A stretch of DNA of 64,000 bases from Faecalimonas sp. (GTDB taxonomy: Bacteria; Bacillota; Clostridia; Lachnospirales; Lachnospiraceae). Under the pieces are notes generated by a model. It searched no databases, was not told where the DNA came from, and saw only the letters and a list, made by a program, of their open reading frames with translations. The stretch is taken from NCBI GenBank assembly GCA_045629665.1, contig JAZQRQ010000073.1, positions 7,892 through 71,891 on the forward strand. Reading direction: 5' to 3'. Below are positions 44,571 through 60,560 of this stretch, one piece after another (the stretch's first letter is position 1; every line of letters starts with the position of its first letter). A program made the position numbers and the translations under genes.

Positions 44571-45383
44571 CTATTCTATTGTATTTATTGGAGGTGTAAC
44601 GTCTTCTGCCGATTCCTCACTCTTGACTGCGTCACCTTCCACATCACTACTTGCTACTTCTTCTTTCTCATCTTGTGTCTGCGTTGCTGTACTGTCCGGA
44701 GTTTCCGATGAAACGACACTATCGTCTTCAGTTGTTGTCTCTGTCGGAGCTGTGTTATCTTGCATTGGCACAGAATCTTTGGACGCCACCACCTCATTCG
44801 TCGTCAGCATCTCCGACTTTCCTCCAACTCCTACTTCCTGCCCGTCAATGATTATCATTTCTTCCAACTCGCGAATTGGATTACCGCTATATGTTCCCCA
44901 ACATGACACAAATCTCACTCTTGTTTCAGTTGCCACCCGTATTTGAAGGGTTCTTTCCTCAATAGAATCTTCTTGGTCTTTTATCTTTCCAAACTGCTGA
45001 GTATAAACAGATTGACTGTTACCTGCATCATCATATATCAATATCTCACAATAACCAGTAGTCGCATTACCCTTCTTTTTCAATGTAAAATCATAGATAC
45101 CAGGTTGGAGTTTATACGTCTTCTCACTCTCATAGGATGCACTCGATGTTTCTGTTTGCGGTTCAATTTTCTGAACCTCCAAATCAAAATACGCCGCCTG
45201 TATCTGATTCATGTTGGAACTTACATTTGCTGTGAAAAAAGCGTATGCAGAAAAACCCATTGCAGACATACACAGTACGATACACGCAATAGCCACCGTC
45301 AGTCGTGCGAAAAATACACGTTCGCCTATGATGCCTTTGCCTTCTTCCGGTACTTCAAAATACTTCTGATATATTTTTCGCAT
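44571..45383 (-). CDS. SipW-type substrate with acidic low-complexity tail (possibly TapA-like)
   Basis: Hydrophobic segment ending MGFSAYAFFTA (SipW-type A-F-F-T); about 70-aa T/S/E/D-rich C-terminal tail. Confidence 0.6.
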   Translation of the reverse strand: MRKIYQKYFEVPEEGKGIIGERVFFARLTVAIACIVLCMSAMGFSAYAFFTANVSSNMNQIQAAYFDLEVQKIEPQTETSSASYESEKTYKLQPGIYDFTLKKKGNATTGYCEILIYDDAGNSQSVYTQQFGKIKDQEDSIEERTLQIRVATETRVRFVSCWGTYSGNPIRELEEMIIIDGQEVGVGGKSEMLTTNEVVASKDSVPMQDNTAPTETTTEDDSVVSSETPDSTATQTQDEKEEVASSDVEGDAVKSEESAEDVTPPINTIE

Positions 45384-45400
45384 AACCTTCTCCTCCTTTA

Positions 45401-46096
45401 CTAGTCTAGTGTTTCTCTCTGCGAGGCAAATACTGTAATTCCCAAATCTACTCTCGGGATATCATTTCCTCGATAGTTGGACTCATTGCCTACTTCCTCC
45501 GGCATATACAGAATCAAAGCCGCATAATCAATGCTTCCCTCTCCTGCCTCTGCCTCCAGCTGTCCGATACTGGACGAATATGTGTTTAATGGTAACATCT
45601 CCTTAGAAGGAGCCTTCTCGTCATCTAAATCTTCTGTTGCAATCACTCTCGCGACCTCTCGTGTGAGCGACTGCTCATCTCTCTCAATTACCGCACCGAA
45701 CTTCAGATAATTCGGTAAATAAATTGGTTGTCCCGCCTCATTCACTCCCGGCACAAAGTCATTCATGTTAACCGAAAGTTTGTAGTCAAATTCCACTTCA
45801 CCTTCGTTTACAATCTTCAGATAGACCACCTGTGTGAAGCCCGGCTCGTAAAGTGCTTCTTCATCGAAAATCTTTGTCTTCTCATCAACCTTCACCCACT
45901 CATCGTTTCCCTGCACATTCGTAACCTTGTAATACACTTCCAGATCCAGTTCCCCAAAATCAAAAGTATTTACAAGTTCCGGCGTCTCATCCATAAACCA
46001 TGCGATAGAAGTTCCTGTTCCGAGGATGCCCCACAGAAAAAGTAAACAGATACTGAGGACGAACGCGATTTTTGTAAATGTTCTATTCTTTGCCAT
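45401..46096 (-). CDS. TasA/camelysin-like SipW-dependent protein
   Basis: GTGTSIAWFMD signal; LYEPGFTQVVYLKIVNEG, NYLKFG, EVGNESNY core shared with the paralogs. Confidence 0.85.
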   Translation of the reverse strand: MAKNRTFTKIAFVLSICLLFLWGILGTGTSIAWFMDETPELVNTFDFGELDLEVYYKVTNVQGNDEWVKVDEKTKIFDEEALYEPGFTQVVYLKIVNEGEVEFDYKLSVNMNDFVPGVNEAGQPIYLPNYLKFGAVIERDEQSLTREVARVIATEDLDDEKAPSKEMLPLNTYSSSIGQLEAEAGEGSIDYAALILYMPEEVGNESNYRGNDIPRVDLGITVFASQRETLD

Positions 46097-46106
46097 GCTG
46101 TCCCTC

Positions 46107-46745
46107 CTATTCCGTCTCTGCTTTGTCTATATTTCTTCGTTTCCTTACAATCAATACAATCAAAATTAATGCTGCGGAACATCCGATTGATGCAATCCAA
46201 AGCCACTGCTCGGATGTATCACCAGTCTGCGCACCGTCATCATCAATCTCTTCCACCATGAACTCCCAATCCAAATAGCCCACGAGATTCTTAAAATTAT
46301 TGTCAAGGCTCGTTGGAACCTGAAGTCCAACCATAAGCTCTGCCTCACCACCTGATGTGAGTACACCTATCTCTCGCCACTCGGTCAGTTGTGCCGTCTG
46401 GTCTGCCGGTGCTTCAAAAAGTGGCGTATCCGTTACTTTTTCTACATATAAATGCAATTTCGACAAGAAATCTTTCGAATCCTCATGTGCACCAAGCGCA
46501 CGCATGGATATCTTTACACTCTTTTTCGCATTGTTCCTTACAACAATCTTCTGTGTTAGAGTATCTCCCGGCATCACATCCTTGAAGTTCGGAAATAAAT
46601 CTGTCAAAGAATGTTCACTGCCCGGTGCAAAGACAAATTTCCCTGCGTCTCCACTGTATGTTACGTTGCCATCCGCAGCCGAAGCCGTGAAAGTAACTAA
46701 CATCATCATAATCAGTGCGAATACTACTCTTGTTATTTTCTTCAT
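46107..46745 (-). CDS. Cell-wall-anchored protein with sortase-type sorting signal
   Basis: Sec signal (TASA-ADG); VMPGDTLTQKI TasA-like segment; AQTGD, then TM helix, then RKRR. Confidence 0.75.
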   Translation of the reverse strand: MKKITRVVFALIMMMLVTFTASAADGNVTYSGDAGKFVFAPGSEHSLTDLFPNFKDVMPGDTLTQKIVVRNNAKKSVKISMRALGAHEDSKDFLSKLHLYVEKVTDTPLFEAPADQTAQLTEWREIGVLTSGGEAELMVGLQVPTSLDNNFKNLVGYLDWEFMVEEIDDDGAQTGDTSEQWLWIASIGCSAALILIVLIVRKRRNIDKAETE

Positions 46746-46755
46746 CCCGCACCTC

Positions 46756-47319
46756 CTATTCCTGTGGCCAGCCGGATGCAGTAAATGTATCCGTGCCCTC
46801 TATAGGATTATTTTCACTCTGCACTGCATGAGCAATTACAGAGAGAGACAATGTCTTTCCTATATAACTGTTATCTACCTTACTTCCCACTATCTCAACT
46901 TTCGAAAATACATCCGGTGTGGTCTGATTTGGTTCCACAACGCCGGTGTAATAGTACCATCCATCATGGTATTTCCAATTATTTTCATCAATATTCAGTT
47001 TGAAACAATCCTCCGCAGAAAGTTCCCGCGAATCCACTCCATAGACAATCTTCACTCGCAAGTAAAACGGATGTGTACAGATATTTTCCACACTCACTTT
47101 CTTGCTCACAATATCACCCGGAATAATGTAGACACCTTTCTTCGGAAATTCTGTTCCCTGGTCAGTTGTCTCGTGGATGACAAACTGAATATCGCCGGAG
47201 GTCACAACATTGGTAGCCTGACCAACCGAGGAGTAATACGCCTGCGTACTTTGGGTGAAAAATGTAAATGCGATGGCAATATATGCTATGGTAATAAATT
47301 TAAGTCGAAGCTTTCCCAT
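46756..47319 (-). CDS. SipW-dependent TasA-like small subunit
   Basis: TQSTQAYYSS signal; NVVTSGDI, IIPGDIVSKKVSVEN, WYYY, AHAVQ; ATG 47319 after GAAAGGAGG. Confidence 0.8.
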   Translation of the reverse strand: MGKLRLKFITIAYIAIAFTFFTQSTQAYYSSVGQATNVVTSGDIQFVIHETTDQGTEFPKKGVYIIPGDIVSKKVSVENICTHPFYLRVKIVYGVDSRELSAEDCFKLNIDENNWKYHDGWYYYTGVVEPNQTTPDVFSKVEIVGSKVDNSYIGKTLSLSVIAHAVQSENNPIEGTDTFTASGWPQE

Positions 47320-47339
47320 GTGTAACCTCCTTTCATATT

Positions 47340-47406
47340 CAGCAATCAAAAGACACAATGGGCTTGTGGCCTTTGATTGCCGGGGAAATCGATTACCGAT
47401 TTCCCC
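47340..47406. other. Intergenic double stem-loop, copy 1
   Basis: CAGCAATCAAAAG / CCTTTGATTGCCG (47340-47382) abutting GGGGAAATCG / CGATTTCCCC (47382-47406). Confidence 0.8.
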
Positions 47407-47434
47407 TTATGCATTATTTTAAACTAACTGTTTT

Positions 47435-49321
47435 TTAATCTGCTTGCAAACGGAATGTGTTTGTTGTAGCATCCCAATAAGTGCTGTAACCTTCGTTCAT
47501 GCATACTAATTTGGCTTCATCACCTTCGGTATAGGTGTAACCAGATCCAGGTTTGAAGTTAAATGCGCTAAAGTTTGTATCCTCAACGACCACAAACTTA
47601 ATGGTGCCAAATTCAGAGGCAAGGTTAATTGTATTGTGGTTAGTGCCAATATTAAAATTCACAATGCCTGTGATGCCGTCACCACCAACAGTAGGAGTAT
47701 GACCGCCAGCAAGGTAAATGTTGTCAGCAAGTTCGCCGCCGGAAATCGTTAATCTCGGACACCAGCCATAGAAACCGTTGTGATTAGCATTACTCGTACT
47801 CACATTACCGCTGATTTTACCACCGGTCATATTCAAAATGGTATAGTTGGTAAGACGCAAAGCACCGGAATCTGCAGCAGTGTTGTTGCAGATCTCAAAA
47901 TCACCACTAAGATTGATGGTAGAGTAAGTTCCGGTGTAGATACCACCGCCAACACCGCCTGCAGTGTTATTGTTAATCTTACCGCTATTGAGATTGTAAA
48001 CAGAGGTATTTCCGTTTACGCCGTAACCCCAGATAGCACCGCCGTCCGTTGCAGCTATGTTGTTGCAAATTTCGCCACCATTCATAGTAAGATTGCATTT
48101 ACCAACCATACGGATTGCACCTGCAACGCCAGTAGAACGGTTGTTGTTGATTTTCGATCCTTCGTTGATGGTAATATGTCCGCCACCCCAGATTGCACCA
48201 GCATCAGAGCGATTGTTGATAATCCAACCACCATTCATAGTTAGGGTTGCGCCGATTCTTGTGCCGAGGTTAACAGCAAAAGCCCCATCATTATTTTGAA
48301 GCACTGCACCTTCGTTAAGCACAATTTTGGCATTACTCTCAGCCAAAATTAAATCGCCTGTTGCAGTGACACCGGCATTAGTAACATTTTCATCGGAAAG
48401 TGTATTCGCCCAAACAGCACCGCCATCTACGATTGTATCCTCAACAGTTAAAGATGCATTTGCTTTCACCGTAAATACCGTACCAGTGTAACCGCCTGCT
48501 CGGCTAATTGTGTGACCTGCACCGTTAATATTTGTAGCATAATCTACGTTAAAGGTTTCAGCAGTTTCAATGTTTTCAGTCAAAACTATATTTTCTACCT
48601 TGTTTGCAAGAGCAATCTTCAACTCATTTGCGTTGGAAACCGATACAAAATCAAGACTTGCATCCTTATCATACTGATTATCAAAACTATCTTCTTCTGC
48701 AGTAAGCTGAGTTGCAACAAGTTGAACTGCAAAATCAGCACCAATTTCCTTGTTCTGATATGTATTTCCTGCTGTCTCCTGCATCTTAAGAGCAAGTGTC
48801 ACAATCATACTTTCACCAGCCAACAGGTTACCTGTTGCTGTACTGTTATCACTAGCCAAATTAGCAAGAACAGCGCTGAGTGTACCGATTTTATTGCTAT
48901 CAGCAAGGTCTGTTCGCTTTGTAACGGCACTTGCAGGATCCATGTAATACACATCGATTACATCTGCTAATTCGCTAACTGTACCGTTTGCTATAATATT
49001 TAATTTGTACTTAAGAGCAAGTGTGCCTACATTTGCAATTCTAATATGACGAACCTGTGTATAACCTGGTTCCCATAAGTCATAGTCGAAGATTGCTCCT
49101 GTAGATGCATCTGTCCATACTGCATCTGTCGCTGAAGGATCATTTTTTCCTTCCATCCAATCCATTGTCACATCTAATGTTCCTGATTTGATGATATTAC
49201 CTGAGCTTGTAACTTCATCTGTGAACCATGCAAATGTGGTTCCAATGAGCATTGCCATACAAAGTACTAATGACAAAATACTGCTGAACAATGCTTTTTT
49301 TGTTGTTTTTTTGTTTGTCAT
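47435..49321 (-). CDS. TasA-domain protein fused to a beta-helix with GGAI-type repeats
   Basis: MLIGTTFAWFTD signal; LWEPGYTQVRHIRIANVG; repeats GAIWG, AGAIR, GGAIWG, GGGIY. Confidence 0.85.
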   Translation of the reverse strand: MTNKKTTKKALFSSILSLVLCMAMLIGTTFAWFTDEVTSSGNIIKSGTLDVTMDWMEGKNDPSATDAVWTDASTGAIFDYDLWEPGYTQVRHIRIANVGTLALKYKLNIIANGTVSELADVIDVYYMDPASAVTKRTDLADSNKIGTLSAVLANLASDNSTATGNLLAGESMIVTLALKMQETAGNTYQNKEIGADFAVQLVATQLTAEEDSFDNQYDKDASLDFVSVSNANELKIALANKVENIVLTENIETAETFNVDYATNINGAGHTISRAGGYTGTVFTVKANASLTVEDTIVDGGAVWANTLSDENVTNAGVTATGDLILAESNAKIVLNEGAVLQNNDGAFAVNLGTRIGATLTMNGGWIINNRSDAGAIWGGGHITINEGSKINNNRSTGVAGAIRMVGKCNLTMNGGEICNNIAATDGGAIWGYGVNGNTSVYNLNSGKINNNTAGGVGGGIYTGTYSTINLSGDFEICNNTAADSGALRLTNYTILNMTGGKISGNVSTSNANHNGFYGWCPRLTISGGELADNIYLAGGHTPTVGGDGITGIVNFNIGTNHNTINLASEFGTIKFVVVEDTNFSAFNFKPGSGYTYTEGDEAKLVCMNEGYSTYWDATTNTFRLQAD

Positions 49322-49381: not shown

Positions 49382-52300
49382 TTATTTAAAAAATTTTCCG
49401 TAGCATTCAATCATCGCCACCAATTCTTCTACTGTTAAGTTACCTTTACCAATAGACACTTTCAAGAACTGACCACCTGCCGCATCAAACATCTCTCTTG
49501 ATAATTCTGCGTATTGTGAAAGTTCTTCATATGTGAACAATCCATATGTCTCGATATCACGAGCCATTGCCTCGTAGTCATAAGTCATTGTTTCTGCATC
49601 TACATCAAAGATGTTAAACAATCCACCTACACCGCCTGGCATAGAAAGCATACCATTTACAAAGTAACAAAGGTGTCCGGCTGTAACAGGACTCCATGCA
49701 GTTGTTACTTGGTTTTCCAGTACAACATCCACTAATGCAACTTTCTCTAACTTATCGCCATTTTGTTTCGCAAATGTATGTCCGATATATTGGTCTGCAT
49801 TTCTGTCAAGGTATACATACTTGTTCAGATTGTAATCCCAGAAACCATGTTCTGAAATAACTTTTACCTCTGTACCATCTGAGAAGTAGAGTTTGATTAC
49901 TTCTACCTCTCTTTCCACTTCACTATCTACAAACATAATTGGTGCAAAATCAAATGCACCTGTTTCAAGATTCCAAACCAATAAATCTTCTGTGCCCGTT
50001 AACTCACAAACCTTTTTCAGGGTGCCATCTGCAAGAGTGATAAGAGTATCAGGAGTTACACAGGATGGACATTCATGTTCTGCACGATAAAACTCGATTA
50101 CATAATAGTACGTAGTTCCCTTATTATCTTTATAAGTAAACTGGCAGTATATAGAATTGGCTTTTTGGTCAGAACCTAATGCACCACTTGTCCATCCATA
50201 TAAGCTCTTATATGTTCCTGAGGTAATTGCACCCTCACTACCACTCTTTCCCGATCCAGAAGACCATCCCCCTCCACCGGATGGTTTATCTGTGGTTAAA
50301 ATAGTTAGATTTGTCGGTTTGGTTGTCGATTCTGGAGAAACGATTGTGGTTGCAATATCTGCTGTTCCTCCCTCTGCATAATCCTCTATCTTTATACCCA
50401 AGAACACTGGATACAACCAGTTGAAATCTGAAGAATTATCTTTAAAATCAACATACACTCTTGGACAATTAACTGTTATTCCATCAATTGTAGTACTTGT
50501 AACATTTGTTCCTGTTGAAGAAGGCATAATGTAAAGATTTCCACTGTTAGATGATACTGTCTTAACATCAGTAATAGTAGTGGCTGCCGTTTTACTTATA
50601 GAACTATATCCATAGAATGTGAATTTTGCATCCTTTGCCGTAGCTTCAACAACATAAACTGCTATTTCTATACTCTTCTCATATTTAATCTCAAAACTAA
50701 CAACTTCACCTTTGTCATTTAATTTAAAATTATACGGGTCTGTATATGTATACACTGCTTGATATGTTCCCGCTTTATTAAAGGTAATTGTCTTTCCAGT
50801 ATAATCTATTCCATCAATTATCACGGTATAAGGCAATTGGTTTCCAGTTTTAGTTACTGAAAGAATGTTCGGATCATATACCTTGTTTTTACCTTGATCA
50901 AATGAAATCTCTAGTTGTTTCGTATCACTATTGTAATAACAATGTTCATTTGAATCTGATGAAGGTGCCACATAATTTTGCTCTGCTTCGTGGTCAAATT
51001 TTACATTAGGTAAAATACTATATTGTTCGCTAGGAGAAAATGTTTTAGGTGGCATTGAAACACTAGTAGGTACTGCAGTATAAACATATCCCCTGTATGA
51101 CATAATAGAAGCATCTTTTCCTGTATATCCCTTTAGTGTATCGATATTATCTTTTCCTATTCCCTCAGTTATAGATAATATACAAGGATTAATCCATGTT
51201 ACACCATCAGAATCTGTATATTGCAAATTCTTGTAAGTTGTATTAAACATAGCTGAACGAAGCTGTTCCGCTGTACTATCTTTAAAGGTTGTTTTATTTG
51301 AAATACAATTATACTGTGTTAGTAAAGGATTTCCGTTTGCGTCCGTCTTGACATGCAATTTGGCTGCAAGATTGCATTCATAGAATACAATGCCTAATCC
51401 AACAACTCCCTTATCATTTGATGTCGATTTTCCATCCGCTGTCGACTGATTAATTGTTATCACGTTATCTAGTGTAATACTACCACCTCGAATATCTAGG
51501 TTGGCAAAAATTCCACCCTCAAGGGTAGTATTAATAATCTGCAAATCTCCATCTTGTGCACGTACAGCCGAAGAACCATTCGACACGTAACTATTCGCGA
51601 TAATCGAATTACCATTTGTCAGAATTGTAGGATAATTATATTCGGATTTAGCTGTTGCACCGTATTTCGTATATACTTCTCCAATGATTTGAATATTATC
51701 TAAAATAGCATTTTTCAACGCAACAGCATAATTACCTCCGATATAACCGTTCACGGTATCTCCATCCTTACCAGCAGTAACATCAAATTTAAATCCATTT
51801 CCGTACAAAGTCGCATTTTCGAGCCAGAAATTACCGTTTGAAGACATAGTAATGTCATTGAGCAGAACAGAATTCCTATTCTTTAACGGAGAGTTACCAC
51901 CGCTAGCAGTAGTTACATTGTAGGCATTCACAACTTCCAAATACAATATTGTAGGTTGACAGAAATCGTAATCTTGGATAGTAACTTTAACAACACCTGT
52001 TCCAGAGAATTCAATTGTACCTTGCATCCAATCTGTAGTATTAGGTTTGAATGTTCCTGATACATTTGAATTTTCGTCAACTTTATCAATGCTTACATAT
52101 ACACCTGAGTCACTAATTTCACGCGCTAGTTTCTTGCCATTCTCATCAGATTTAGGTTTTTCATCTTCGTCATATAATTCAGTATTTGCTTGGAATAACG
52201 TTTCTAGATATACAGTATTTTGGTTACCAACGCGATATAAATAATCATTAGTAAATTTACTTACAAATTTCTCAGCAGATTCGTTTTGATCACCTTCAAT

Positions 52301-54721
52301 AATACCCAAATCGGTTACAATACCACTATATTCTTTCAATCCAATACTATTTACTCCCCAACTGAAACCAGTAAAGAGTTGATGGAATGGAAGGTATACG
52401 GCTTGCTTATCTTCAGCATCTGTGTGGTTGTGTCCAATACAGGTCGCTTGTTCTTTCCCTTTTGAGATATCAATCTCATCATTCGGAACACGGCTGAACT
52501 GATAATCCTCCGAATATGAAGCCATGGTATTTTCTTCAAACTCACAATAGAAGTAATCATTCCAATCACCAAAATTAACGGTGCACTTCTCTGCTGAAAT
52601 ACCTTTCATATTTGGAATAACTTTTCCTTCTTCATTAGTTGTATTATGGCGAATAGAACCAATTATCATACCTGCATAGCGATATGCATAATATTGATAA
52701 TTTGCACATACGTCATTGTAAACATCAATCTGTGCAGCAACATGACAGTTGTCAAAATAAACCGTATCTCCTGTAGAATCACCATTTTCATCGACATTAC
52801 CACGATACATACCAATCAGACCACCACAAGCAACATCCCAGCTTCCCCACAAAGCCGAAATAATATTAGTATTATCCACAGTAATGTTCTTTAAAGTAAT
52901 AGTTTCTTTTGTTTCATGTTCTCTTCCAGCAATACCAATAATTCCTCCATTACCAGTGTTATATACACGAGGATTACATTGTGTAATTGCAATATTTTCA
53001 AACTTTGAATTCACTGCATATGCTGCAATAACACCTGTAGGTGTAAATTCACCATCAGATTCGAATTTGTCAACAGTCAAGTTCTTAACACTACCATTTA
53101 CAACATAACCGAAAAGTCCCATTGCATCTTTATAGTAATTTGGTGTTCCACTATAACCATCATTATAATCGCCAAACATTTCCCAAGTATTCTGATAGAA
53201 ATTAGAAATAGTATGACCATCACCATCAAAAACACCTTCGAAAGAATATACAGTACTTTCAACATTCGTTTCTACAGTTGTAGGTCGATTACAGTTGTTC
53301 TTACTTACAAATTCTTTGTTATTATTGTATCCAATAGGATAAAAAATTGTCGTTGTTGCACTTCCCTTTTCTTCATCAGACACTACATTACCATGATTCA
53401 AGTTAATATCTGAAAGAAGTTTTACTGTTTTGCCTTCAAAACTATCTCTTGCAATTCCTGCGGCCATACCACCTACGATTTGAGAAAAAGCATGAAGTTG
53501 ATCGGCATTGGCAACAGTCAACTCAGTTTTACTTACATCATACCAATCATAATCAACTTTACCCTGCCAAGCCTTTGAAGTGTCAGCTACCATTGCAACC
53601 TCAGAGAACGAAGTCATTGCAACACTTACTTCTCCTGTAAGCGGATCATATGTAAATGTATTATGTGCAGTAAGTTCAGACGCATCATTAACCAACGTCA
53701 TCTTTGAAGTAGTACCATCTTCGACGTGGAAAAGGTGATAGTTACCCATGTTCATGTATTTAGGTAATACTTCGCCAAGTTCAATTACTATCGGAACTGT
53801 ATTATCTTCAGCCACTCCATCAATATGAACATCAACCGGAATCAACACTTCGTTATTAACTACTGTAATGTCACTTGTTGTATTTTTAAGAGGCGTAACA
53901 GAAAGTGTAAGTTTGTCTGCATCATCTTCCATAGTTACACCAGCCGGAACAAATGCGGAAATACCGTCTCCATTTAAAGTTACGCCATCTGTTGGAACCT
54001 TTCCATTGTCAGGAGTAACATTTACTGACACCTTGCCTGGAGTTAAGATTGTCGGCATTTCTGCTTTTGAATCATAATCCGAACCAAAAGAATCCTGCTC
54101 AAATGGTGCCTGAGTTGCTAATGCCGTAATGGTAAATTGTCCGGCATCCTCATTCTGGTACTCATTTCCGGCGGTAATAATCATATTCATCGCCATGGTC
54201 ACAATAACCTCACCTGACGGATGCAGAGGGCTGGATTGTTCTGCTGCCAACAGGGTACCATCTGCAGTAGCACCACCATTTAATACGTTATTAAGCAAAC
54301 CTATTACCTTTAGGTTCTTCAAATCTGAGCGTTGTTCTACATTTACACCACCCTCAGCAAAGTACACGTTAATAACTTCAGCTAGTTTGCCCACACCATT
54401 CTGAGGCGTGAGAGATAACTTATAGTTAAGAGCAAGTTCACCGGCATTAACCAATTTTATGTACTTAACATCAGTGTATCCCGGCTCCCAATTATCATAG
54501 TTGAATATAGTATTATGTCCGTCTTCCTCAACATTGCGCCATTCGCCACTATTAAGGTCGTCCGTCCAATACATTTCTAAATCCAAGTTTCCAGCTGTAA
54601 TAATATTATTACTACTAGAGATTTTGTCGCTGAACCACGCAAATGTCGTGCCAATGAGCATAGATATGCACAACAGCAAGGCTATTACACTATGGAGCAA
54701 CGAATTTTTAGTCTTCTTCAT
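49382..54721 (-). CDS. 1779-aa TasA-domain adhesin with GLUG/beta-helix region and C-terminal Hedgehog-like Hint domain
   Basis: MLIGTTFAWFSD signal; NWEPGYTDVKYIKLVN; FEGVFDGDGHTISN...GLFGYV (GLUG-type); Hint from C1554 (CVTPDTLITLADG) to YFVNGMLS1693. Confidence 0.88.
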   Translation of the reverse strand: MKKTKNSLLHSVIALLLCISMLIGTTFAWFSDKISSSNNIITAGNLDLEMYWTDDLNSGEWRNVEEDGHNTIFNYDNWEPGYTDVKYIKLVNAGELALNYKLSLTPQNGVGKLAEVINVYFAEGGVNVEQRSDLKNLKVIGLLNNVLNGGATADGTLLAAEQSSPLHPSGEVIVTMAMNMIITAGNEYQNEDAGQFTITALATQAPFEQDSFGSDYDSKAEMPTILTPGKVSVNVTPDNGKVPTDGVTLNGDGISAFVPAGVTMEDDADKLTLSVTPLKNTTSDITVVNNEVLIPVDVHIDGVAEDNTVPIVIELGEVLPKYMNMGNYHLFHVEDGTTSKMTLVNDASELTAHNTFTYDPLTGEVSVAMTSFSEVAMVADTSKAWQGKVDYDWYDVSKTELTVANADQLHAFSQIVGGMAAGIARDSFEGKTVKLLSDINLNHGNVVSDEEKGSATTTIFYPIGYNNNKEFVSKNNCNRPTTVETNVESTVYSFEGVFDGDGHTISNFYQNTWEMFGDYNDGYSGTPNYYKDAMGLFGYVVNGSVKNLTVDKFESDGEFTPTGVIAAYAVNSKFENIAITQCNPRVYNTGNGGIIGIAGREHETKETITLKNITVDNTNIISALWGSWDVACGGLIGMYRGNVDENGDSTGDTVYFDNCHVAAQIDVYNDVCANYQYYAYRYAGMIIGSIRHNTTNEEGKVIPNMKGISAEKCTVNFGDWNDYFYCEFEENTMASYSEDYQFSRVPNDEIDISKGKEQATCIGHNHTDAEDKQAVYLPFHQLFTGFSWGVNSIGLKEYSGIVTDLGIIEGDQNESAEKFVSKFTNDYLYRVGNQNTVYLETLFQANTELYDEDEKPKSDENGKKLAREISDSGVYVSIDKVDENSNVSGTFKPNTTDWMQGTIEFSGTGVVKVTIQDYDFCQPTILYLEVVNAYNVTTASGGNSPLKNRNSVLLNDITMSSNGNFWLENATLYGNGFKFDVTAGKDGDTVNGYIGGNYAVALKNAILDNIQIIGEVYTKYGATAKSEYNYPTILTNGNSIIANSYVSNGSSAVRAQDGDLQIINTTLEGGIFANLDIRGGSITLDNVITINQSTADGKSTSNDKGVVGLGIVFYECNLAAKLHVKTDANGNPLLTQYNCISNKTTFKDSTAEQLRSAMFNTTYKNLQYTDSDGVTWINPCILSITEGIGKDNIDTLKGYTGKDASIMSYRGYVYTAVPTSVSMPPKTFSPSEQYSILPNVKFDHEAEQNYVAPSSDSNEHCYYNSDTKQLEISFDQGKNKVYDPNILSVTKTGNQLPYTVIIDGIDYTGKTITFNKAGTYQAVYTYTDPYNFKLNDKGEVVSFEIKYEKSIEIAVYVVEATAKDAKFTFYGYSSISKTAATTITDVKTVSSNSGNLYIMPSSTGTNVTSTTIDGITVNCPRVYVDFKDNSSDFNWLYPVFLGIKIEDYAEGGTADIATTIVSPESTTKPTNLTILTTDKPSGGGGWSSGSGKSGSEGAITSGTYKSLYGWTSGALGSDQKANSIYCQFTYKDNKGTTYYYVIEFYRAEHECPSCVTPDTLITLADGTLKKVCELTGTEDLLVWNLETGAFDFAPIMFVDSEVEREVEVIKLYFSDGTEVKVISEHGFWDYNLNKYVYLDRNADQYIGHTFAKQNGDKLEKVALVDVVLENQVTTAWSPVTAGHLCYFVNGMLSMPGGVGGLFNIFDVDAETMTYDYEAMARDIETYGLFTYEELSQYAELSREMFDAAGGQFLKVSIGKGNLTVEELVAMIECYGKFFK

Positions 54722-54864: not shown

Positions 54865-56850
54865 CTAAGGTTTAGCTATGTCTTCCCAACCATCGTTAGC
54901 AAGGTATCTGCCAAGTTCACCCTTGAATGTACCGCCAGTGATAGTAACATTCTCTGTGGTAGCCTTTGCATTTCCACCACCGAAAGCAACATCATTATTG
55001 AATGTACCACCGGTGATAGTAACATCCACATTAGCAAAACTCTGTCCATATGAATATGAGTAGATAGATAAACCACCTGTACCATTCAGAACTCCACCGT
55101 TAACAGTCAGATTAACATCAGGAGCATCTGCTGGCTTGTTGCTAGGCAGTTGAATCTGAACAGCACGAGCACCGGTAATGGTTCCGCCGTTGATTGTACA
55201 ATTGATAGCAGCACTGCCAAATGGACACAGACGGATGGCATTCTTCTGGCTTACAACCTTACCACTATTGATAATCAATTCAGCACCGGCAGAGCAGTCG
55301 ATAGCAACACTAGATCCTGAATTAGTTGTATTGATTACAGTTGCACCGTCAATCACAAGTTTCCCGGTATTATTGATAGTGTTGGTGCCATAACCAAAGT
55401 TAGGATCGCCAACGCCTTTGTAAGTAACAGTACCGTTCTTGATTGTAAGTTCGCCCTTGTTAGCAATTGCACTAGATGCAGCTGCAGTTGTGTTCTTAGT
55501 AGTAATGGTGTTGCCATTTAAATCAAGTACAACAGCCTTGTCTGCTGGGACAGTAATGTTTGCTTCACCAAGGTCAACATCAGCATCTAAAATAATGTCT
55601 CCACCTTTTGCAATAGCATCTGCCAATGTAGCAGCATCAGCAACCTTCTTAGCACCGAAGGTGTAGGAATATGTACCGATGGTGATATACTCGCCTGTCT
55701 CCTCATTTGCTGAACCAGAAGTAGCGTTAGGATCTATTGTAGTCTCATAGAGACGCAATTCAACAGTCATAGTCTTTCCTGCCATAGCAGCCTGATCTAC
55801 AGCAAATGCACCACAAGAGAATTCTTTAACAGCAAGGCAGAGTTCTTCATAGTTCATGCTAATACCTGCAAACTCAAGCATACGAACAGGAGTATTAGCA
55901 GCGATATCGCCAACACCATCTAATTCAAATGCGAGCCAATCAGGAGAATATGTATCATACTGACCTGCTAGACCGATAGCAGCATCATCTACATCCTGAT
56001 CAAAGAATGCAACAAAGTCAGCGTGCCAGTAACGGTAAGCGTTCATCTGTGCCTGATCGTAAGTCTCGGTTGTGTTAAACACATAGCCGGTGTCTAATGT
56101 AACAGTATTGCCGCCAAGGGTTCCAACTGTAGGCATTTTTGCCAAAACAGTAGTACGTGCTGCCGGAGCACCGCCAAACTTTGCATCTGCGTCATATTGA
56201 TTGTTGAAAGAGTCACTCTCAGAAGTGTACTGAGTAGCCATAAGGTTGATTCCTAGATCAATCTGAGGTGCAACCTCTCCTGTACGGTAATTTGCTTCAT
56301 TACCAACTGTTTCAGGCATATAAACTACTAATGCAACATACTGTTCAACTGCACCTGCTTCGATGCTACCAGCCTTAGTATAACCAGTAGATAAAATAGC
56401 AGAATTAGTCACTGCGGCACGTGCAGCTGCACGGTCTGCATAAGGTGTGGAAACACCTTCGATAGCACCGAACTCAATGTAATCAGAAAGACGCAGTGCT
56501 TCACCTGCAACATTAATAGATTCGACCTCATTTACAATGTTAATACCCAACTGATATTTCAACGCAAGAGTTCCAAGATTAGAAACCTTTAAGTAAACAA
56601 CTTCTGTGTGCCCAGGTTCCCAAAGAGTATTTTCCTCAAACACATTAGTATTAGCGGTAACTTTTTCCCAGCTATCGCCATTGTAGTATTCCAACTCAAC
56701 ATCAAGATTACCGGACTTGATGATATTGTTAGTGCTGGAAACACTATCCGTAAACCAAGCGAATGTCGTTCCAATAAGCATTGCCATGCACAGAACTAGT
56801 GACAACACGCTTGATAAAAGTGCACGTTTTGTGCTTTTTTTGTTATTCAT
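54865..56850 (-). CDS. TasA-domain protein fused to an uncharacterised domain and a beta-helix
   Basis: MLIGTTFAWFTD signal; LWEPGHTEVVYLKVSNLG; C-terminal xTIxGGTF beta-helix repeats; ATG 56850 after GGAGG. Confidence 0.85.
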   Translation of the reverse strand: MNNKKSTKRALLSSVLSLVLCMAMLIGTTFAWFTDSVSSTNNIIKSGNLDVELEYYNGDSWEKVTANTNVFEENTLWEPGHTEVVYLKVSNLGTLALKYQLGINIVNEVESINVAGEALRLSDYIEFGAIEGVSTPYADRAAARAAVTNSAILSTGYTKAGSIEAGAVEQYVALVVYMPETVGNEANYRTGEVAPQIDLGINLMATQYTSESDSFNNQYDADAKFGGAPAARTTVLAKMPTVGTLGGNTVTLDTGYVFNTTETYDQAQMNAYRYWHADFVAFFDQDVDDAAIGLAGQYDTYSPDWLAFELDGVGDIAANTPVRMLEFAGISMNYEELCLAVKEFSCGAFAVDQAAMAGKTMTVELRLYETTIDPNATSGSANEETGEYITIGTYSYTFGAKKVADAATLADAIAKGGDIILDADVDLGEANITVPADKAVVLDLNGNTITTKNTTAAASSAIANKGELTIKNGTVTYKGVGDPNFGYGTNTINNTGKLVIDGATVINTTNSGSSVAIDCSAGAELIINSGKVVSQKNAIRLCPFGSAAINCTINGGTITGARAVQIQLPSNKPADAPDVNLTVNGGVLNGTGGLSIYSYSYGQSFANVDVTITGGTFNNDVAFGGGNAKATTENVTITGGTFKGELGRYLANDGWEDIAKP

Positions 56851-56884
56851 TTTCATTTCCTCCAATTAAATCTGTCTTAACTAA

Positions 56885-57583
56885 CTAGTCTTCATCAACA
56901 AATGCTGTTCCGGCTGTCCAGTTAACATAAGCAAACGCCTCGACTGCATTATCGCCTGTATTATCTCTTTGTAATGCATCAGCTGACACAACAATATCAA
57001 ACTCATTATTGATTTCAGCCATTTCCTGTTGAGTGAACTCTGTAGGAATATTTACGTTTGTAAATAAGACCTCATCACTACCTGCCGGAAGTTCTCTGTT
57101 AAGATAGAGATACCATGTAGCCTTGTCATCTTGAACAGCCACTTCATCTTCTACCAGAAGCCATTTGCTAGTTATATCTGTCCCAACATTAGCAGCCAAG
57201 CCATAGCTAGAACCCTCAAATAACTCCGTGAAAACAAGAGAGCCACCTGCTGCTTTCCAGCCACCTGCCTTATTCAATGTTACTGCCACACGAATCCATT
57301 GTGTATAATCACCTGTATTTGTGATTGTAGGATCCTTAGCGATATCATCACCTGGGATTACATCATAATATGTAACACCTGTAGTTGTTTCATTACCTTC
57401 AAGGTCTGTTTCTGATACTTTTACTGAAAATTCAGGATCGGTATCATTTTCACTTGTAGCAACCTTGAATGAGTTGGTAACGCTCTTGGTATCATTAAAC
57501 CAAGCCAATGTTCCCAATGATAAAATTGCAACCAAAGAAACAGCTAACGATGCAGTCAACACTTTTTTCTTATTCATTTTCAT
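56885..57583 (-). CDS. SipW-dependent TasA-like protein, candidate major fibre subunit
   Basis: ILSLGTLAWFNDT signal; VIPGDDIAKDPTITNTG; ADALQ near the C-terminus; single domain, first substrate after the peptidases. Confidence 0.85.
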   Translation of the reverse strand: MKMNKKKVLTASLAVSLVAILSLGTLAWFNDTKSVTNSFKVATSENDTDPEFSVKVSETDLEGNETTTGVTYYDVIPGDDIAKDPTITNTGDYTQWIRVAVTLNKAGGWKAAGGSLVFTELFEGSSYGLAANVGTDITSKWLLVEDEVAVQDDKATWYLYLNRELPAGSDEVLFTNVNIPTEFTQQEMAEINNEFDIVVSADALQRDNTGDNAVEAFAYVNWTAGTAFVDED

Positions 57584-57669: not shown

Positions 57670-58368
57670 TTATTGTGATTCCTGATTACTTGCATTCACC
57701 CTTAGATAACAGGTCTCGCACAATTGCCCCACGCCTGTGACATAGTACTTTCTTGCATCTGCCGGCAGGTCCCTTAGCACACCTGTATCATCTCCACAGA
57801 GTATGCATTGTTCTGTTTCCAACCTGACTTTTTCCTCTGCGCCCTTCTCTTCGACGAGCTCATCCTCTTCTTTCTTCTTTCCAAAGAAATCCGGCAAGAA
57901 GACAATTAGAATCAATATGAACCCAACGCCCACCGTGATATACATGCCCGGTGGATTCTGAACAAAATCAGACACATACCCAAGCAGTGGAATGCTAAAC
58001 CGCGGCACTCCGATAACATTGTTAAAATGCACCGGCGAAGCGTCTGCTGTATCGTTTGCATCTCCCTTTGTATAGAAGTGTTGATTTTCTTCATCCACCT
58101 CCACAACTCTATGTGTGGCCACTACCAGATTCTCGTTTAATACAAATGTAATCGGTGTTCCCACCTCTATCTCATATGGATTCACATCTTCTACATAGAT
58201 GAGGTCTCCTACACTGTAAGTCGGTTCCATACTGCCGGATATAACATTGAACACCTGATACCCCAGTAATCTTGAGCCCATTAGGAACACGGCACATAGC
58301 ACAAAAAGCCCTACTAAAAATGTAGAGCTTACATTCCAAATTTTCTTAAACACATTATTGCGTTGCAT
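57670..58368 (-). CDS. sipW: Signal peptidase I, SipW/ER-type, with C-terminal zinc ribbon
   Basis: VISGSMEP (Ser), ATHRV (His), TKGDAN; tail CILCG...QLCETC. Confidence 0.9.
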   Translation of the reverse strand: MQRNNVFKKIWNVSSTFLVGLFVLCAVFLMGSRLLGYQVFNVISGSMEPTYSVGDLIYVEDVNPYEIEVGTPITFVLNENLVVATHRVVEVDEENQHFYTKGDANDTADASPVHFNNVIGVPRFSIPLLGYVSDFVQNPPGMYITVGVGFILILIVFLPDFFGKKKEEDELVEEKGAEEKVRLETEQCILCGDDTGVLRDLPADARKYYVTGVGQLCETCYLRVNASNQESQ

Positions 58369-58392
58369 AGTATCGCCTCCCCTTACCAAGTC

Positions 58393-58620
58393 TTAATAAC
58401 GCACAAATGGTAGAATAGATAACCAAAGCTTGCGCCTTTTTTGAATCCAATATTTCTTTTCTCTTCCACGTGTTCTGTGTATTTCCCCTGTGAGATGTTG
58501 TAGTTCTCTGCGAAAATCAAGCAGCCATTTTATTAAACCAACGAAAACTACAAGCAAGAGAAATCCAATGCAAATAGCGAGTAGCAGATAAATGCCAAAG
58601 TCGCTTCCAGACTGATTCAT
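58393..58620 (-). CDS. Small membrane protein
   Basis: One long TM helix and a basic tail; TAATG overlap with the upstream sipW. Confidence 0.7.
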   Translation of the reverse strand: MNQSGSDFGIYLLLAICIGFLLLVVFVGLIKWLLDFRRELQHLTGEIHRTRGREKKYWIQKRRKLWLSILPFVRY

Positions 58621-59336
58621 TATTCTTCCTTCTTCTCCGTCTCAACAGAGTTTTTTTGACGGGTAAGTTCTTCTTTCAATGCCAGAAGTTCTTCCATCAT
58701 CCTTGCATTTTCGGCTGCTCCCATTGCAATCTTCGCCCGTTCTTCCTCCATCTCCTGCATTTGCTCCTTCTTATATCTACGGAACAAGCGAAGGCAATTG
58801 AGTCCTTGATAGAGTATCAAGAGCATAAATGGTATGAAAATGCACACGAAATATCCTTGCGTTGTCTTAAGAAAATTGAAGAAGGTTCCAATATTAGGAA
58901 TTGCTTTTTCATATCTTCCCAGAATATAAGGGTAAGTTACGATTGTAGCATCGTCTGTATCCGTGGTTGTACCATAAGTAACGAATCCCGGATTGCCATT
59001 CGCATCCGTTGTCAGGGCACGAATCTTATGGGTGATTGTCTCACCAAAACTCTCTGGATTCTGTGACATGTATGTAATGATGTCATCCTCTTTTAACGTC
59101 GCAGGGTCCACTTGTTTTACCAAAATCAAATCTCCTGCATCAAAATCTGTCTTGCTCATGGAATCTGAGGTTACAACGTAGGCTCTGTATCCAAATAAAC
59201 TTCTATCATTACGGTTAAATGTAGTTACAGAGACTATGGTGAATATCATCATACACACTGCAAGAAGCACTACTGCCCAGACCACTATTGTTTTTACTAT
59301 ATTGAATATTTTCTTTGCATTACTTGGAAGTTTCAT
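58620..59336 (-). CDS. sipW: Signal peptidase I, SipW/ER-type, with C-terminal coiled coil
   Basis: VVTSDSMS (Ser), GDLILVK, ITHKI (His), two TM helices, charged helical tail. Confidence 0.88.
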   Translation of the reverse strand: MKLPSNAKKIFNIVKTIVVWAVVLLAVCMMIFTIVSVTTFNRNDRSLFGYRAYVVTSDSMSKTDFDAGDLILVKQVDPATLKEDDIITYMSQNPESFGETITHKIRALTTDANGNPGFVTYGTTTDTDDATIVTYPYILGRYEKAIPNIGTFFNFLKTTQGYFVCIFIPFMLLILYQGLNCLRLFRRYKKEQMQEMEEERAKIAMGAAENARMMEELLALKEELTRQKNSVETEKKEE

Positions 59337-59351
59337 TTTCTATTATCCTCC

Positions 59352-59379
59352 GTAGAACATAATTCTTATTATGTGGTAA
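59352..59379 (+). repeat. dif-like recombination site A
   Basis: GTAGAACATAA-TTCTTA-TTATGTGGTAA (11-6-11); direct repeat of site B. Confidence 0.8.
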
Positions 59380-59381
59380 AA

Positions 59382-59409
59382 AAACTACATAATTCTTATT
59401 ATGTAGTAA
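59382..59409 (+). repeat. dif-like recombination site B
   Basis: AAACTACATAA-TTCTTA-TTATGTAGTAA. Confidence 0.9.
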
Positions 59410-59633
59410 AAAAGCAAAATAAAATTATATAATTTTTCTCCTTTGAATAATGGTATCATAATACATAATTGTTTTAAAAGCAAGGCTTTTTTGATAATAA
59501 TTTAACAGAATGAAATATACGCACGTCAATAACACCCGCGAGCTGAGTTTTACATAAAATCGCCGGGGGTGTTTTTTTCGCGCTCGAAAAGTCGCGTGGG
59601 GAATGCGTTTTATTATTAGCCCGAAAGCACCTA
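59408..59633. promoter_or_regulatory. Candidate invertible promoter segment, currently pointing into the sipW/TasA operon
   Basis: Between inverted sites B and C; minus-strand TTGCTT (59483-59478), 17 bp, TATGAT (59460-59455); plus-strand hairpin plus T7 at 59531-59578. Confidence 0.75.
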
Positions 59634-59659
59634 ACTACATAATAAGAATTATGTAGTAT
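59632..59659 (-). repeat. dif-like recombination site C (inverted copy of B)
   Basis: TAACTACATAA-TAAGAA-TTATGTAGTAT; the 24-bp core 59634-59657 is the exact reverse complement of 59384-59407. Confidence 0.9.
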
Positions 59660-59667
59660 TTTTTATT

Positions 59668-60489
59668 TCAGACTACTAATCCCAATTGCTCAATCTTTCT
59701 TCTGTGTTCCATTCCTGTTGTCATGATATAGATACGAGTTGTGTCTATACTGCCATGTCCAAGAATATCTGCCAATTTAGCAATATCCTTTTCTATTTTA
59801 TAAAATGTTTTTGCAAATAGCTTGCGTAAATTGTGTGGAAATACTTTTGATGCACTTACACCTGCTTTCTCACATAATTTCTTCATATCTGACCAGATAT
59901 TGCTCCGATTGAGTGGTTTACCGCTCTTTGTCCGAAATATGATTCCCGAACGAATTCCTTGTTGCTTTGCGAATCCAATTAATGTCTTTCTAAGTTTTCC
60001 CGGAAGAAGGATTGTTCGCGTTTTATTTTTACAACACACTACAACCTCTCCGTTCTGAACTGCCTCAACTGTAAAATAAGAAAGTTCCGATACACGTATT
60101 CCTGTCCCGCAGATTGTCTGCAAGATGAAATACAGTCGCGTTTGTTGCCTTGCCGCACTCAGTAGTCGCATGTACTCCATCTTTGTCAATTCCCTCTGTT
60201 CTGCACAATAGATCTGACGCTGTGTTTTCATACTCTTTACTTTGTAATCAGCCCAACCCACATACGATAAAAAACTATTCAACGATGCTAACATGGAGTT
60301 GATGCTTCTTATTGCATATCCACTTTCTATTAGAGACTTTTTGTATTCTATAACTATTTCTTTTGTGACGTCGTTATGTCCTACAAACCTTGAAAACTTC
60401 CTCACATCACGTAGATATTTTTCGACTGTGATGCTACTCTTTTCTTCCTGCCTTAAATACTCCTCAAATTCTAAAATTAGTTTTTCCAT
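59668..60489 (-). CDS. Tyrosine recombinase (Xer/integrase family)
   Basis: Intact catalytic set: GIRVSE (R), KNK (K), PHNLRK (H-x-x-R), LGH, TTRIY (Y); ATG 60489 after GGAGG; stop 8 nt from site C. Confidence 0.95.
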   Translation of the reverse strand: MEKLILEFEEYLRQEEKSSITVEKYLRDVRKFSRFVGHNDVTKEIVIEYKKSLIESGYAIRSINSMLASLNSFLSYVGWADYKVKSMKTQRQIYCAEQRELTKMEYMRLLSAARQQTRLYFILQTICGTGIRVSELSYFTVEAVQNGEVVVCCKNKTRTILLPGKLRKTLIGFAKQQGIRSGIIFRTKSGKPLNRSNIWSDMKKLCEKAGVSASKVFPHNLRKLFAKTFYKIEKDIAKLADILGHGSIDTTRIYIMTTGMEHRRKIEQLGLVV

Positions 60490-60560
60490 ACGAGACCTCC
60501 ATGAACCAAATTTTTCATTTGTAACATTAGTTTCTCCTATGATGGTATTATAATGCAATT

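Follow-up and report, generated by a model that had tools for sequence, protein, structure and literature searches.

What becomes of a large bacterial surface protein that ends in a domain resembling the autoprocessing domain of Hedgehog? The question is raised by a gene for a secreted protein of 1,779 amino acids (aa), here called P0001, on the minus strand of a 64,000-nucleotide stretch of a Faecalimonas sp. genome (contig JAZQRQ010000073.1, positions 7,892 to 71,891; hereafter the window). Hint domains splice (inteins), cleave (bacterial intein-like domains, BILs, and pre-toxin Hints) or transfer a protein to a small molecule (Hedgehog/Hog), the last of these being known to us so far from eukaryotes only. 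The original prediction had placed a Hedgehog-type Hint domain at the end of P0001, described the protein as a fibre adhesin, and proposed that the domain cannot splice but may ligate the adhesin to a sterol, bile acid, lipid or host nucleophile. The C-terminal 226 residues of P0001, a Hint domain followed by a conserved tail, are best described as a module representing a Hint family that is new and unannotated and whose C-terminal domain is novel. On the sequence and structural comparisons given below, this module probably cuts off, or covalently re-attaches, the protein that it ends.

Fold and conservation of the module

The module begins at Cys1554, which opens CVTPDTLITLADG. Counting from this residue gives Asp at position 46 (in IMFVD), Ile at position 69 and His at position 72 (in ISEH), and FVNGMLS at residues 134-140; the domain ends in ...GMLSMPGG, with no terminal His-Asn. 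Each of these residues is where the original prediction had placed it. Its location of the domain at 49643-50062 also stands for the minus strand, which is the coding one (the plus-strand translation of this interval has many stops), except that the last Hint strand stops at residue 141 and not at residue 140. The equivalent of Hedgehog Cys143, given as Met, is Met141 if a one-residue gap is admitted and Pro142 by simple count from the conserved Asn. An 85-residue tail follows the Hint domain of P0001 and runs to the stop codon.

With an alignment of 37 family sequences as input, AlphaFold2 produced a model (pLDDT 90.7, pTM 0.85) that is beta-rich to about residue 141 and then forms five helices; the single-sequence run (pLDDT 34.8) was unusable. 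Comparison of the model with the PDB by Foldseek gave 64 matches at E<=0.001; the 50 listed are Hint-fold proteins without exception, the top ones with TM-scores of 0.76-0.86 normalised to the target. These matches include the Ssp DnaB mini-intein (6fre, E=3.3e-9), the Hedgehog autoprocessing domain (1at0, E=4.2e-9, TM 0.79) and its D46H mutant (6tyy), Tetrahymena BIL2 (6y75, E=1e-8, TM 0.82) and a Clostridium thermocellum BIL (2lwy, TM 0.86). The model has the disk-shaped all-beta Hint fold, and the N-terminal nucleophile and block B His of the superfamily, C1 and H72, are present in 257 of 257 modules of the same subfamily. Judged from the predicted structure, which we take as proof of superfamily membership, the module is a genuine Hint domain.

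The nearest Hint-clan model in Pfam is that of Hedgehog (PF01079), though the match falls below threshold: P0001 scores 13.5-13.8 bits (E=0.044-0.055) against a cut-off of 29.7, and the match ends at profile position 146 of 213. P0001 also matches Pfam Intein_splicing (E=0.099) and NCBIfam intein_Nterm (TIGR01445, E=0.0025, below its cut-off). Among the 37 aligned members, 29 match PF01079 (best E=1.4e-5), five Intein_splicing, two Hom_end_hint and none Hint_2, PT-HINT or Vint. Profile comparison with Hint and Hog models thus names the expected family as nearest and fails to reach significance. A phmmer search of PDB sequences with the module gave nothing meaningful, and the family profile gave marginal matches only, to the DnaB intein (E=0.17), 1at0 (E=1.5) and an Ataxin AXH domain (probably spurious).

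A search of a 90%-clustered protein collection with residues 1545-1779 of P0001 identified at least 1,343 proteins that carry the module. Over the module the best 120 of the 1,343 are 74-88% identical to the query; their lengths lie between 1,008 and 2,999 aa, and their Pfam domains include the InlB B-repeat, dockerin and SLH. When representatives of 50% clusters were searched exhaustively with HMMER, 2,796 matched at E<=1e-3 and 1,281 at E<=1e-30, with the module almost always at the extreme C-terminus; the carrier proteins range from 279 to 4,264 aa. No precomputed Pfam domain covers the module. The Pfam, NCBIfam and source names found ('hypothetical', 'SipW-dependent-type signal peptide-containing', 'InlB B-repeat-containing') leave it unannotated, and no description of a Hint-plus-tail module was found in the literature.

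Across 257 modules, residues C1, W30, G35, D46, E71, H72, F74, S124, P125, T127, L139, P142, N150, K206 and Y221 are invariant; the last four lie in the tail. Conservation sets in exactly at Cys1, and all sequence upstream is variable. The 20 residues before Cys1 are variable and rich in Ser, Gly and Thr, the residue at -1 being Ser in 91 modules, Gly in 55, Glu in 32 and Asn in 29, with Thr and others in the rest. Such a Ser/Gly-rich linker resembles the wall-spanning linkers that precede LPXTG signals.

Ten further modules (L090-L099), 35-39% identical to the main subfamily, form a sister subfamily that retains the architecture in full and has the Ser/Gly linker, Cys1 and His72 (10/10 each) and the tail motifs YD, D[IV]xxYGLY, YEQF and LK[VI]x[VI]GKG. 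Position 46 in these modules is I, V, F, R or E, and Asp in only one of the ten. Position 48 is His in all ten, where the main subfamily has Asp or Glu in 255 of 257. Glu71, Cys132 and Asn136 are not conserved in the sister subfamily, and Lys206 can be Arg. By this comparison Cys1, His72 and the tail are universal, and an acid or base at positions 46/48 is the shared feature.

The tail has a charge of -9.4 +/- 2.0, a pI of 4.1 and no hydrophobic run longer than 7 residues. Searches against Pfam (best match EF-hand_6, E=0.07) and PDB sequences gave no credible relative. A dockerin or EF-hand was considered for the tail and rejected, as this weak EF-hand_6 match is the only one, Lys or hydrophobic residues stand at the would-be calcium ligand positions, and Dockerin_1 does not match. 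Lys206 was likewise rejected as an internal acceptor, being Arg in some members of the sister subfamily.

Comparison with known Hint proteins

The family profile was aligned with the Drosophila Hedgehog C-domain and with two control inteins; these sequences, and that of the Drosophila sterol-recognition region (SRR) used below, were typed in and not drawn from database records. Positions 1-72 align with Hedgehog without gaps (26% identity, P=1.9e-4), pairing C1 with C1, D46 with D46 and H72 with H72, in agreement with the profile alignment to 1at0. The control inteins align poorly (P=0.085 and 0.1). Asp46 was one of the marks by which the domain had been called Hedgehog-like: it does align with Hedgehog D46 and is present in 257 of 257 modules of its own subfamily, and it is replaced in the sister subfamily. 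That an Asp at this position is specific to Hedgehog was only partly upheld, since the Mtu RecA intein control (poorly aligned) has an Asp opposite D46. The Hedgehog D46H mutant, a 'general base swap', reportedly keeps activity, and the natural Asp46/His48 alternation between the two subfamilies parallels this mutant (6tyy), offering a ready-made mechanistic comparison.

Further likeness is found in block F, where Ser-Pro-Val-Thr of the module and Ala-Pro-Leu-Thr of Hedgehog share the pattern x-Pro-x-Thr, unlike the Asp at F:4 of inteins, and in the Val-Asn of the last strand, which Hedgehog has too. Motif J of Hedgehog reads ...VN...ASCYA; the module sequence FVNGMLSMPG keeps Val-Asn and a Ser without the CYA, and the Asn becomes E, D or G in the sister subfamily. 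Block B of the module reads Ile-Ser-Glu-His and not Thr-x-x-His, position 69 being Ile in 245 and Val in 12 of 257 modules. Hog domains are defined by motif J, the Hog counterpart of intein block G, and by motifs K and L of the SRR or adduct-recognition region (ARR) (Bürglin, PMC2362128). The SCYA of motif J and motifs K and L are absent from the module. The label 'Hedgehog-type Hint' is partly right: the Hint domain, the nearest Pfam model and the gapless alignment of positions 1-72 support it, and the PF01079 threshold, which none of the 37 members reaches, Thr69 and motifs K and L do not; comparison of the modelled fold does not separate Hedgehog from inteins or BILs. By the sequence criteria that define Hog domains the module is not one of them, though it is Hog-like in layout.

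The layout shared with Hog domains consists of a C-terminal place in a secreted protein, the C1/D46/H72 register and a conserved region of about 85 residues after the Hint domain. The module differs in being bacterial (gut Clostridia), in falling below the PF01079 threshold, in having Ile or Val for Thr69 and in lacking SCYA. The region after the Hint domain differs most in character. In Hedgehog, the SRR is a membrane-bound helix-loop-helix that recruits cholesterol and has critical Leu, Trp and Arg residues (PMC7906309). The Drosophila SRR is basic (pI 9.2); against this basic, membrane-binding helix-loop-helix, the module tail is acidic and globular and lacks motifs K and L (PMC7906309, PMC2362128). 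The position of the tail mimics that of an SRR or ARR and its chemistry does not. Because the tail is soluble and acidic, a sterol or lipid acceptor is disfavoured, and we infer that a cationic, amine or sugar acceptor would fit better.

Inteins end in (His-)Asn followed by Cys, Ser or Thr at +1, both of which the module lacks; they sit within a conserved host protein that is rejoined, whereas the sequence upstream of the module is hypervariable and that downstream is a co-travelling conserved tail. Type A BILs end in His-Asn (PMC4031507), as the module does not. BIL2 (6y75), in the crystal form of which Asn143 is mutated, likewise ends in His-Asn; it and the type A BIL 2lwy show 14% sequence identity to the module, and neither has an equivalent of the tail. 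PT-HINT (PF07591) matches none of the 37 members, and the module has a constant tail and no conserved downstream gene. By its residues and surroundings, the module is neither an intein, nor a type A BIL, nor a PT-HINT.

Type B BILs are closer. Pfam Hint_2 (PF13403), which we take to cover them, matches 0 of 37 members at E<=1. Like the module, type B BILs are bacterial Hint domains that occur in proteins of a secreted or variable kind, have an N-terminal nucleophile and a block B His, and lack block G; they are expected to cleave rather than splice, as would be expected of the module (PMC4031507). A conserved helical tail is not a described feature of BILs. Also new relative to type B BILs are the hosts (Oscillospiraceae, Christensenellaceae and Lachnospiraceae-like metagenome-assembled genomes) and the TasA-type and pilin-type fusion partners. 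Tetrahymena BUBL BILs have reportedly been proposed to ligate a ubiquitin-like domain to amines, which would be a precedent for conjugation driven by a Hint domain.

Proposed reaction and its alternatives

The module may be a self-contained autoprocessing unit with Hog-like transfer logic, a proposal that we rate only just short of even as an explanation of the whole. P0001 would be exported by Sec and SipW, its N-terminal domain would enter a TasA-like fibre, and the module would then fold. The Cys1554 thiol, helped by His72, would attack the Ser1553 carbonyl (an N-to-S acyl shift), leaving the 1,553-residue passenger held by a thioester. This first step is likely, because Cys1 and His72 are invariant and the conservation boundary is sharp; homology to other Hint domains makes thioester formation at Ser1553-Cys1554 the firmest part of the scheme. 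An outside nucleophile would then resolve the thioester, and the module would depart. The tail, packed on the Hint domain, would position the acceptor, with Asp46 (His48 in the sister subfamily) as general base, and the C-terminal carboxyl of the passenger would be transferred to it. Candidate acceptors would be a fibre subunit, an amine of the cell wall, or a protein or glycan belonging to the substrate; given the acidic, soluble tail, a sterol is less likely than an amine or the hydroxyl of a sugar, and water would be the default when no acceptor is bound. Transfer to any acceptor, a sterol or bile acid included, is a serious prospect that falls somewhat more clearly below even. Precedents for Hint-driven transfer are the cholesterolysis of Hedgehog with its SRR (PMC7906309) and the ARR of nematode Hog proteins (PMC2362128).

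Splicing is excluded, as had been predicted, because the module has no C-terminal Asn, no +1 nucleophile and no extein continuity, a conserved tail standing where an extein would be expected.

Several observations weigh against Hog-like transfer. The block B Thr is replaced by Ile or Val throughout the subfamily, and Asp46 is not universal, as the sister subfamily shows. No similarity of the tail to the Hedgehog SRR, or to anything else, is detectable, so that a role as acceptor selector is suggested by its position only. Anchoring to the cell's own wall needs no Hint domain here, given a sorting signal in the operon and three sortases in the genome. We know of no bacterial Hint domain shown to pass its passenger to a separate acceptor. 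The closest bacterial precedent, the type B BILs, only cleave (PMC4031507).

The strongest alternative, hydrolytic self-cleavage only, has a substantial minority share of the probability. Water would resolve the thioester and the tail would regulate or stabilise the domain, making the module either a C-terminal pro-domain, discarded after it has aided folding or export or served as a mask, or a device for timed release. Hydrolysis is the simplest chemistry and would suffice for a domain without C-terminal splicing residues; type B BILs, which lack block G, cleave uncoupled from splicing (PMC4031507). A fibre that already contains a subunit with a sortase-type anchor would need no extra attachment. 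Water as the resolving nucleophile is thus favoured by this precedent, by its simplicity and by the want of a shown case of bacterial Hint transfer. Hydrolysis leaves unexplained, however, why an 85-residue tail stays with the Hint domain even where identity falls to 35%, and is retained with it at 75-88% identity between bacterial families, and why an acid or base is ever present at positions 46/48; since the module has no anchor of its own, cleavage would free nothing that was held. An acceptor is favoured on just these grounds: the tail is never missing, is highly conserved and would otherwise have no purpose, an acid or base is always found at 46/48, and simple release has no reason in a module without an anchor.

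It is improbable that the Hint fold is catalytically silent and stays attached, capping the distal end of variable surface proteins in a structural or binding role. The missing block B Thr and the matching of every curated Hint model below threshold are what such a cap would lead one to expect, and a conserved binding partner could explain the high conservation. Cys1 and His72, however, are absolutely invariant in both subfamilies, and the onset of conservation at the nucleophile is the signature of a junction that is used chemically.

Esterification of the Hedgehog kind, in which the tail would serve as SRR and the passenger would end up on a sterol, a bile acid or a lipid of the membrane, is still less probable, both as an account of the module and as the choice of acceptor within Hog-like transfer. 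It would accord with the C1/D46/H72 register, with PF01079 as nearest model and with the gut origin of most carriers, where sterols and bile acids are abundant; a Hint domain with a C-terminal region is the Hog architecture (PMC2362128). The sterol or bile acid acceptor suggested by the original prediction is nevertheless not favoured, because the strongly acidic tail, with its short hydrophobic runs, is the opposite of the basic, membrane-bound SRR (PMC7906309). Asp46, moreover, gives way to other residues in the sister subfamily, motifs K and L of the SRR are lacking, and some carriers come from digesters (L074, L080) and not from guts.

Release of the tail by the Hint domain, to act as a small effector in the style of polymorphic toxins, where pre-toxin Hint domains precede C-terminal toxins (PMC3482391), is scarcely credible, since the tail is constant and not polymorphic, no C-terminal Asn is present to free it, no immunity-like gene is conserved downstream and PF07591 matches 0 of 37 members.

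If Hog-like transfer occurs, its product would resemble those of sortases and thioester-domain adhesins, a surface protein held covalently on a wall, fibre or host nucleophile and reached by way of an acyl-enzyme or thioester intermediate. Both are functional analogues only, without homology to the module, and unlike them the module would act in cis and in a single turnover. A bacterial counterpart of Hog in this full sense, a single-turnover, helper-free ligase at the C-terminus of Gram-positive surface proteins that would join them, through a Hint thioester and a tail dedicated to recognising the acceptor, to a fibre, wall or host nucleophile, is on present evidence rather unlikely; if real, it would provide sortase-independent covalent attachment or adhesion.

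Carrier proteins, operon and significance

P0001 consists, in order, of a SipW-type signal, a TasA/camelysin-like N-domain, a long passenger with a beta-helix-like region, the Hint domain and the tail (Table 1). Its first domain is matched by PF12389 (residues 7-104, E=9.6e-7) and by TIGR04088 (residues 13-46, above its cut-off). The whole protein has no relative among PDB sequences and no PHROG match, and the passenger has no database match. Set against its nearest relatives, P0001 is a mosaic: identity is 45-100% over the N-terminal ~1,000 aa, about 18% over residues ~1050-1553 and 85-88% over the module. The unrelated stretch of aa ~1050-1553 (about 50066-51570 of the window, minus strand) lies between two constant ends, which suggests that the distal passenger is swapped like a cassette.

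Table 1. Features of P0001, its C-terminal module and the surrounding operon (window coordinates)
Feature	Position	Strand	Basis
Gene for 1,779-aa secreted protein (P0001)	49382..54721	-	Open reading frame (ORF) list and translation
SipW-dependent signal peptide and start of TasA/camelysin-like domain, aa 7-104	54410..54703	-	PF12389, TIGR04088
CPSC motif, Cys at -3 of nucleophile	50060..50071	-	Sequence
Predicted scissile junction Ser1553/Cys1554 (Hint Cys1)	50060..50065	-	Cys in 257/257; onset of conservation
Hint domain, module residues 1-141 (aa 1554-1694)	49640..50062	-	AlphaFold2, Foldseek, PF01079, TIGR01445
Asp46 (aa 1599), aligned with Hedgehog Asp46 (D303)	49925..49927	-	257/257 in own subfamily
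His72 (aa 1625), block B histidine	49847..49849	-	257/257 in own, 10/10 in sister subfamily
Acidic tail, aa 1695-1779 (module residues 142-226), predicted to form five helices	49385..49639	-	AlphaFold2, alignment
XerC/XerD-like tyrosine recombinase gene	59668..60558	-	NF040815, E=9.4e-40
30-nt inverted repeats	59378-59407, 59634-59663	arms around 226-nt segment	97% complementary
Two SipW-type signal peptidase genes heading the operon	57670-58389, 58620-59336	-	TIGR02228, NF046067
BsaA/TasA-like subunit	56885-57583	-	TIGR04090, TIGR04088, PF12389
666-aa SipW-dependent protein	54865-56865	-	TIGR04090, TIGR04088, PF12389
Downstream genes: 628-aa SipW-dependent protein, 200-aa BsaA-like protein, 212-aa TasA-like protein, 231-aa and 270-aa proteins with SipW-like signals	44571..49321	-	
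212-aa TasA-like protein with sortase-type sorting signal	46107-46745	-	Sequence

The Cys at -3 of the nucleophile, part of the CPSC motif, was compared with the engineered intein redox trap 3nzm, which is among the Foldseek matches of the module model. A CxxC disulfide is a possible redox gate that would hold the domain inactive until reduced. Because only 3 of 256 family members have this Cys, it is a local speciality, outside the mechanism of the family.

The genes from the recombinase to the 270-aa protein form a co-oriented cluster. Within it, the 212-aa TasA-like protein has an ordinary signal peptide and ends in GAQTGD, a transmembrane stretch and RKRR, and is a candidate wall anchor of the fibre. 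Three sortase genes are found elsewhere in the genome of the window (G000 contigs C29, C36 and C50). The idea that the module replaces sortase in this genome was rejected in view of these genes and of the sorting signal in the same operon. From the operon content and the sorting signal, P0001 counts among several large 'cargo' subunits belonging to a TasA-like fibre, which probably has a wall anchor of its own. Of the term 'fibre adhesin', the association with a fibre is reasonable in the light of the signal and operon families, and the adhesin is a guess, the passenger being without database relatives.

The segment with inverted repeats separates the recombinase gene from the first SipW gene. 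Only one other genome of the genus (G008) has the operon; there the 226-nt segment is turned the other way round with respect to the SipW flank, and the assembly is broken at the repeats. The interval 59378..59663 looks like a putative invertible promoter, which would place the whole fibre operon under phase variation.

Among the 257 modules, the carrier N-termini are of SipW/TasA type in about 90 and of prepilin type (GFT[LIV][IV]E) in at least seven, the rest having ordinary signals or being truncated. Six carriers from other metagenomes (P0122, P0130, P0143, P0148, P0149 and P0155) start with the type IV prepilin signal KGFT[LIV][IV]E. Because some carriers start in this way, pilin-like proteins share the Hint-tail cap with TasA-like and ordinary secreted ones. 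A minority of carriers have an extra segment after the tail: in P0170, P0174, P0183, P0203, P0214 and P0223 it is a conserved beta-rich domain of ~88 aa ending in ...KVTVKWHG.NYIFNIKVA, and in P0186, P0209 and P0217 a low-complexity stretch rich in His, Asn and Gly that ends in RRRGR.

With one genome taken per species, 258 loci encode the module. Nearly all of the 80 that were fetched come from metagenome-derived, uncultured genomes from animal guts, and two from digesters (L074, L080); their labels are Oscillospiraceae, Christensenella/Christensenellaceae, Borkfalkiaceae, Faecalimonas, Faecousia and the like. In a sample spread evenly over the class, the module occurs in 14 of 399 genomes and 8 of 217 genera, with one to three copies each, sometimes in tandem. 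Within the genus of the window it occurs in 2 of 25 genomes, and the genome of the window has one copy. No relatives of the module were found in viral contigs. The module is a patchy accessory element. Two loci (G248:C5:117384-129013 and G167:C64:12095-21481) have two or three large module-ending genes in tandem, and in the second of these both subfamilies, main and sister, are mixed. Across the 80 related loci there is no conserved partner gene, the only recurrent neighbours being antisense artefact ORFs and TasA-like genes specific to subsets. Because of this lack of a conserved partner nearby, the Hint-plus-tail unit looks self-sufficient.

The module thus brings the Hog layout, a secreted passenger, a Hint domain and a conserved C-terminal region, into bacteria, in thousands of proteins of Clostridia from animal guts and digesters. 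Should cleavage be all that it does, little-studied gut anaerobes would have a widespread, unrecognised step in the maturation of their fibre, pilus and other surface proteins. Should it transfer its passenger, it would be a new covalent attachment route for bacterial surface proteins and a compact self-ligating tag for protein engineering. Transfer would also bear on the origin of the Hedgehog autoprocessing domain, and the module might be a prokaryotic relative of the ancestor of the eukaryotic Hedgehog autoprocessing domains.

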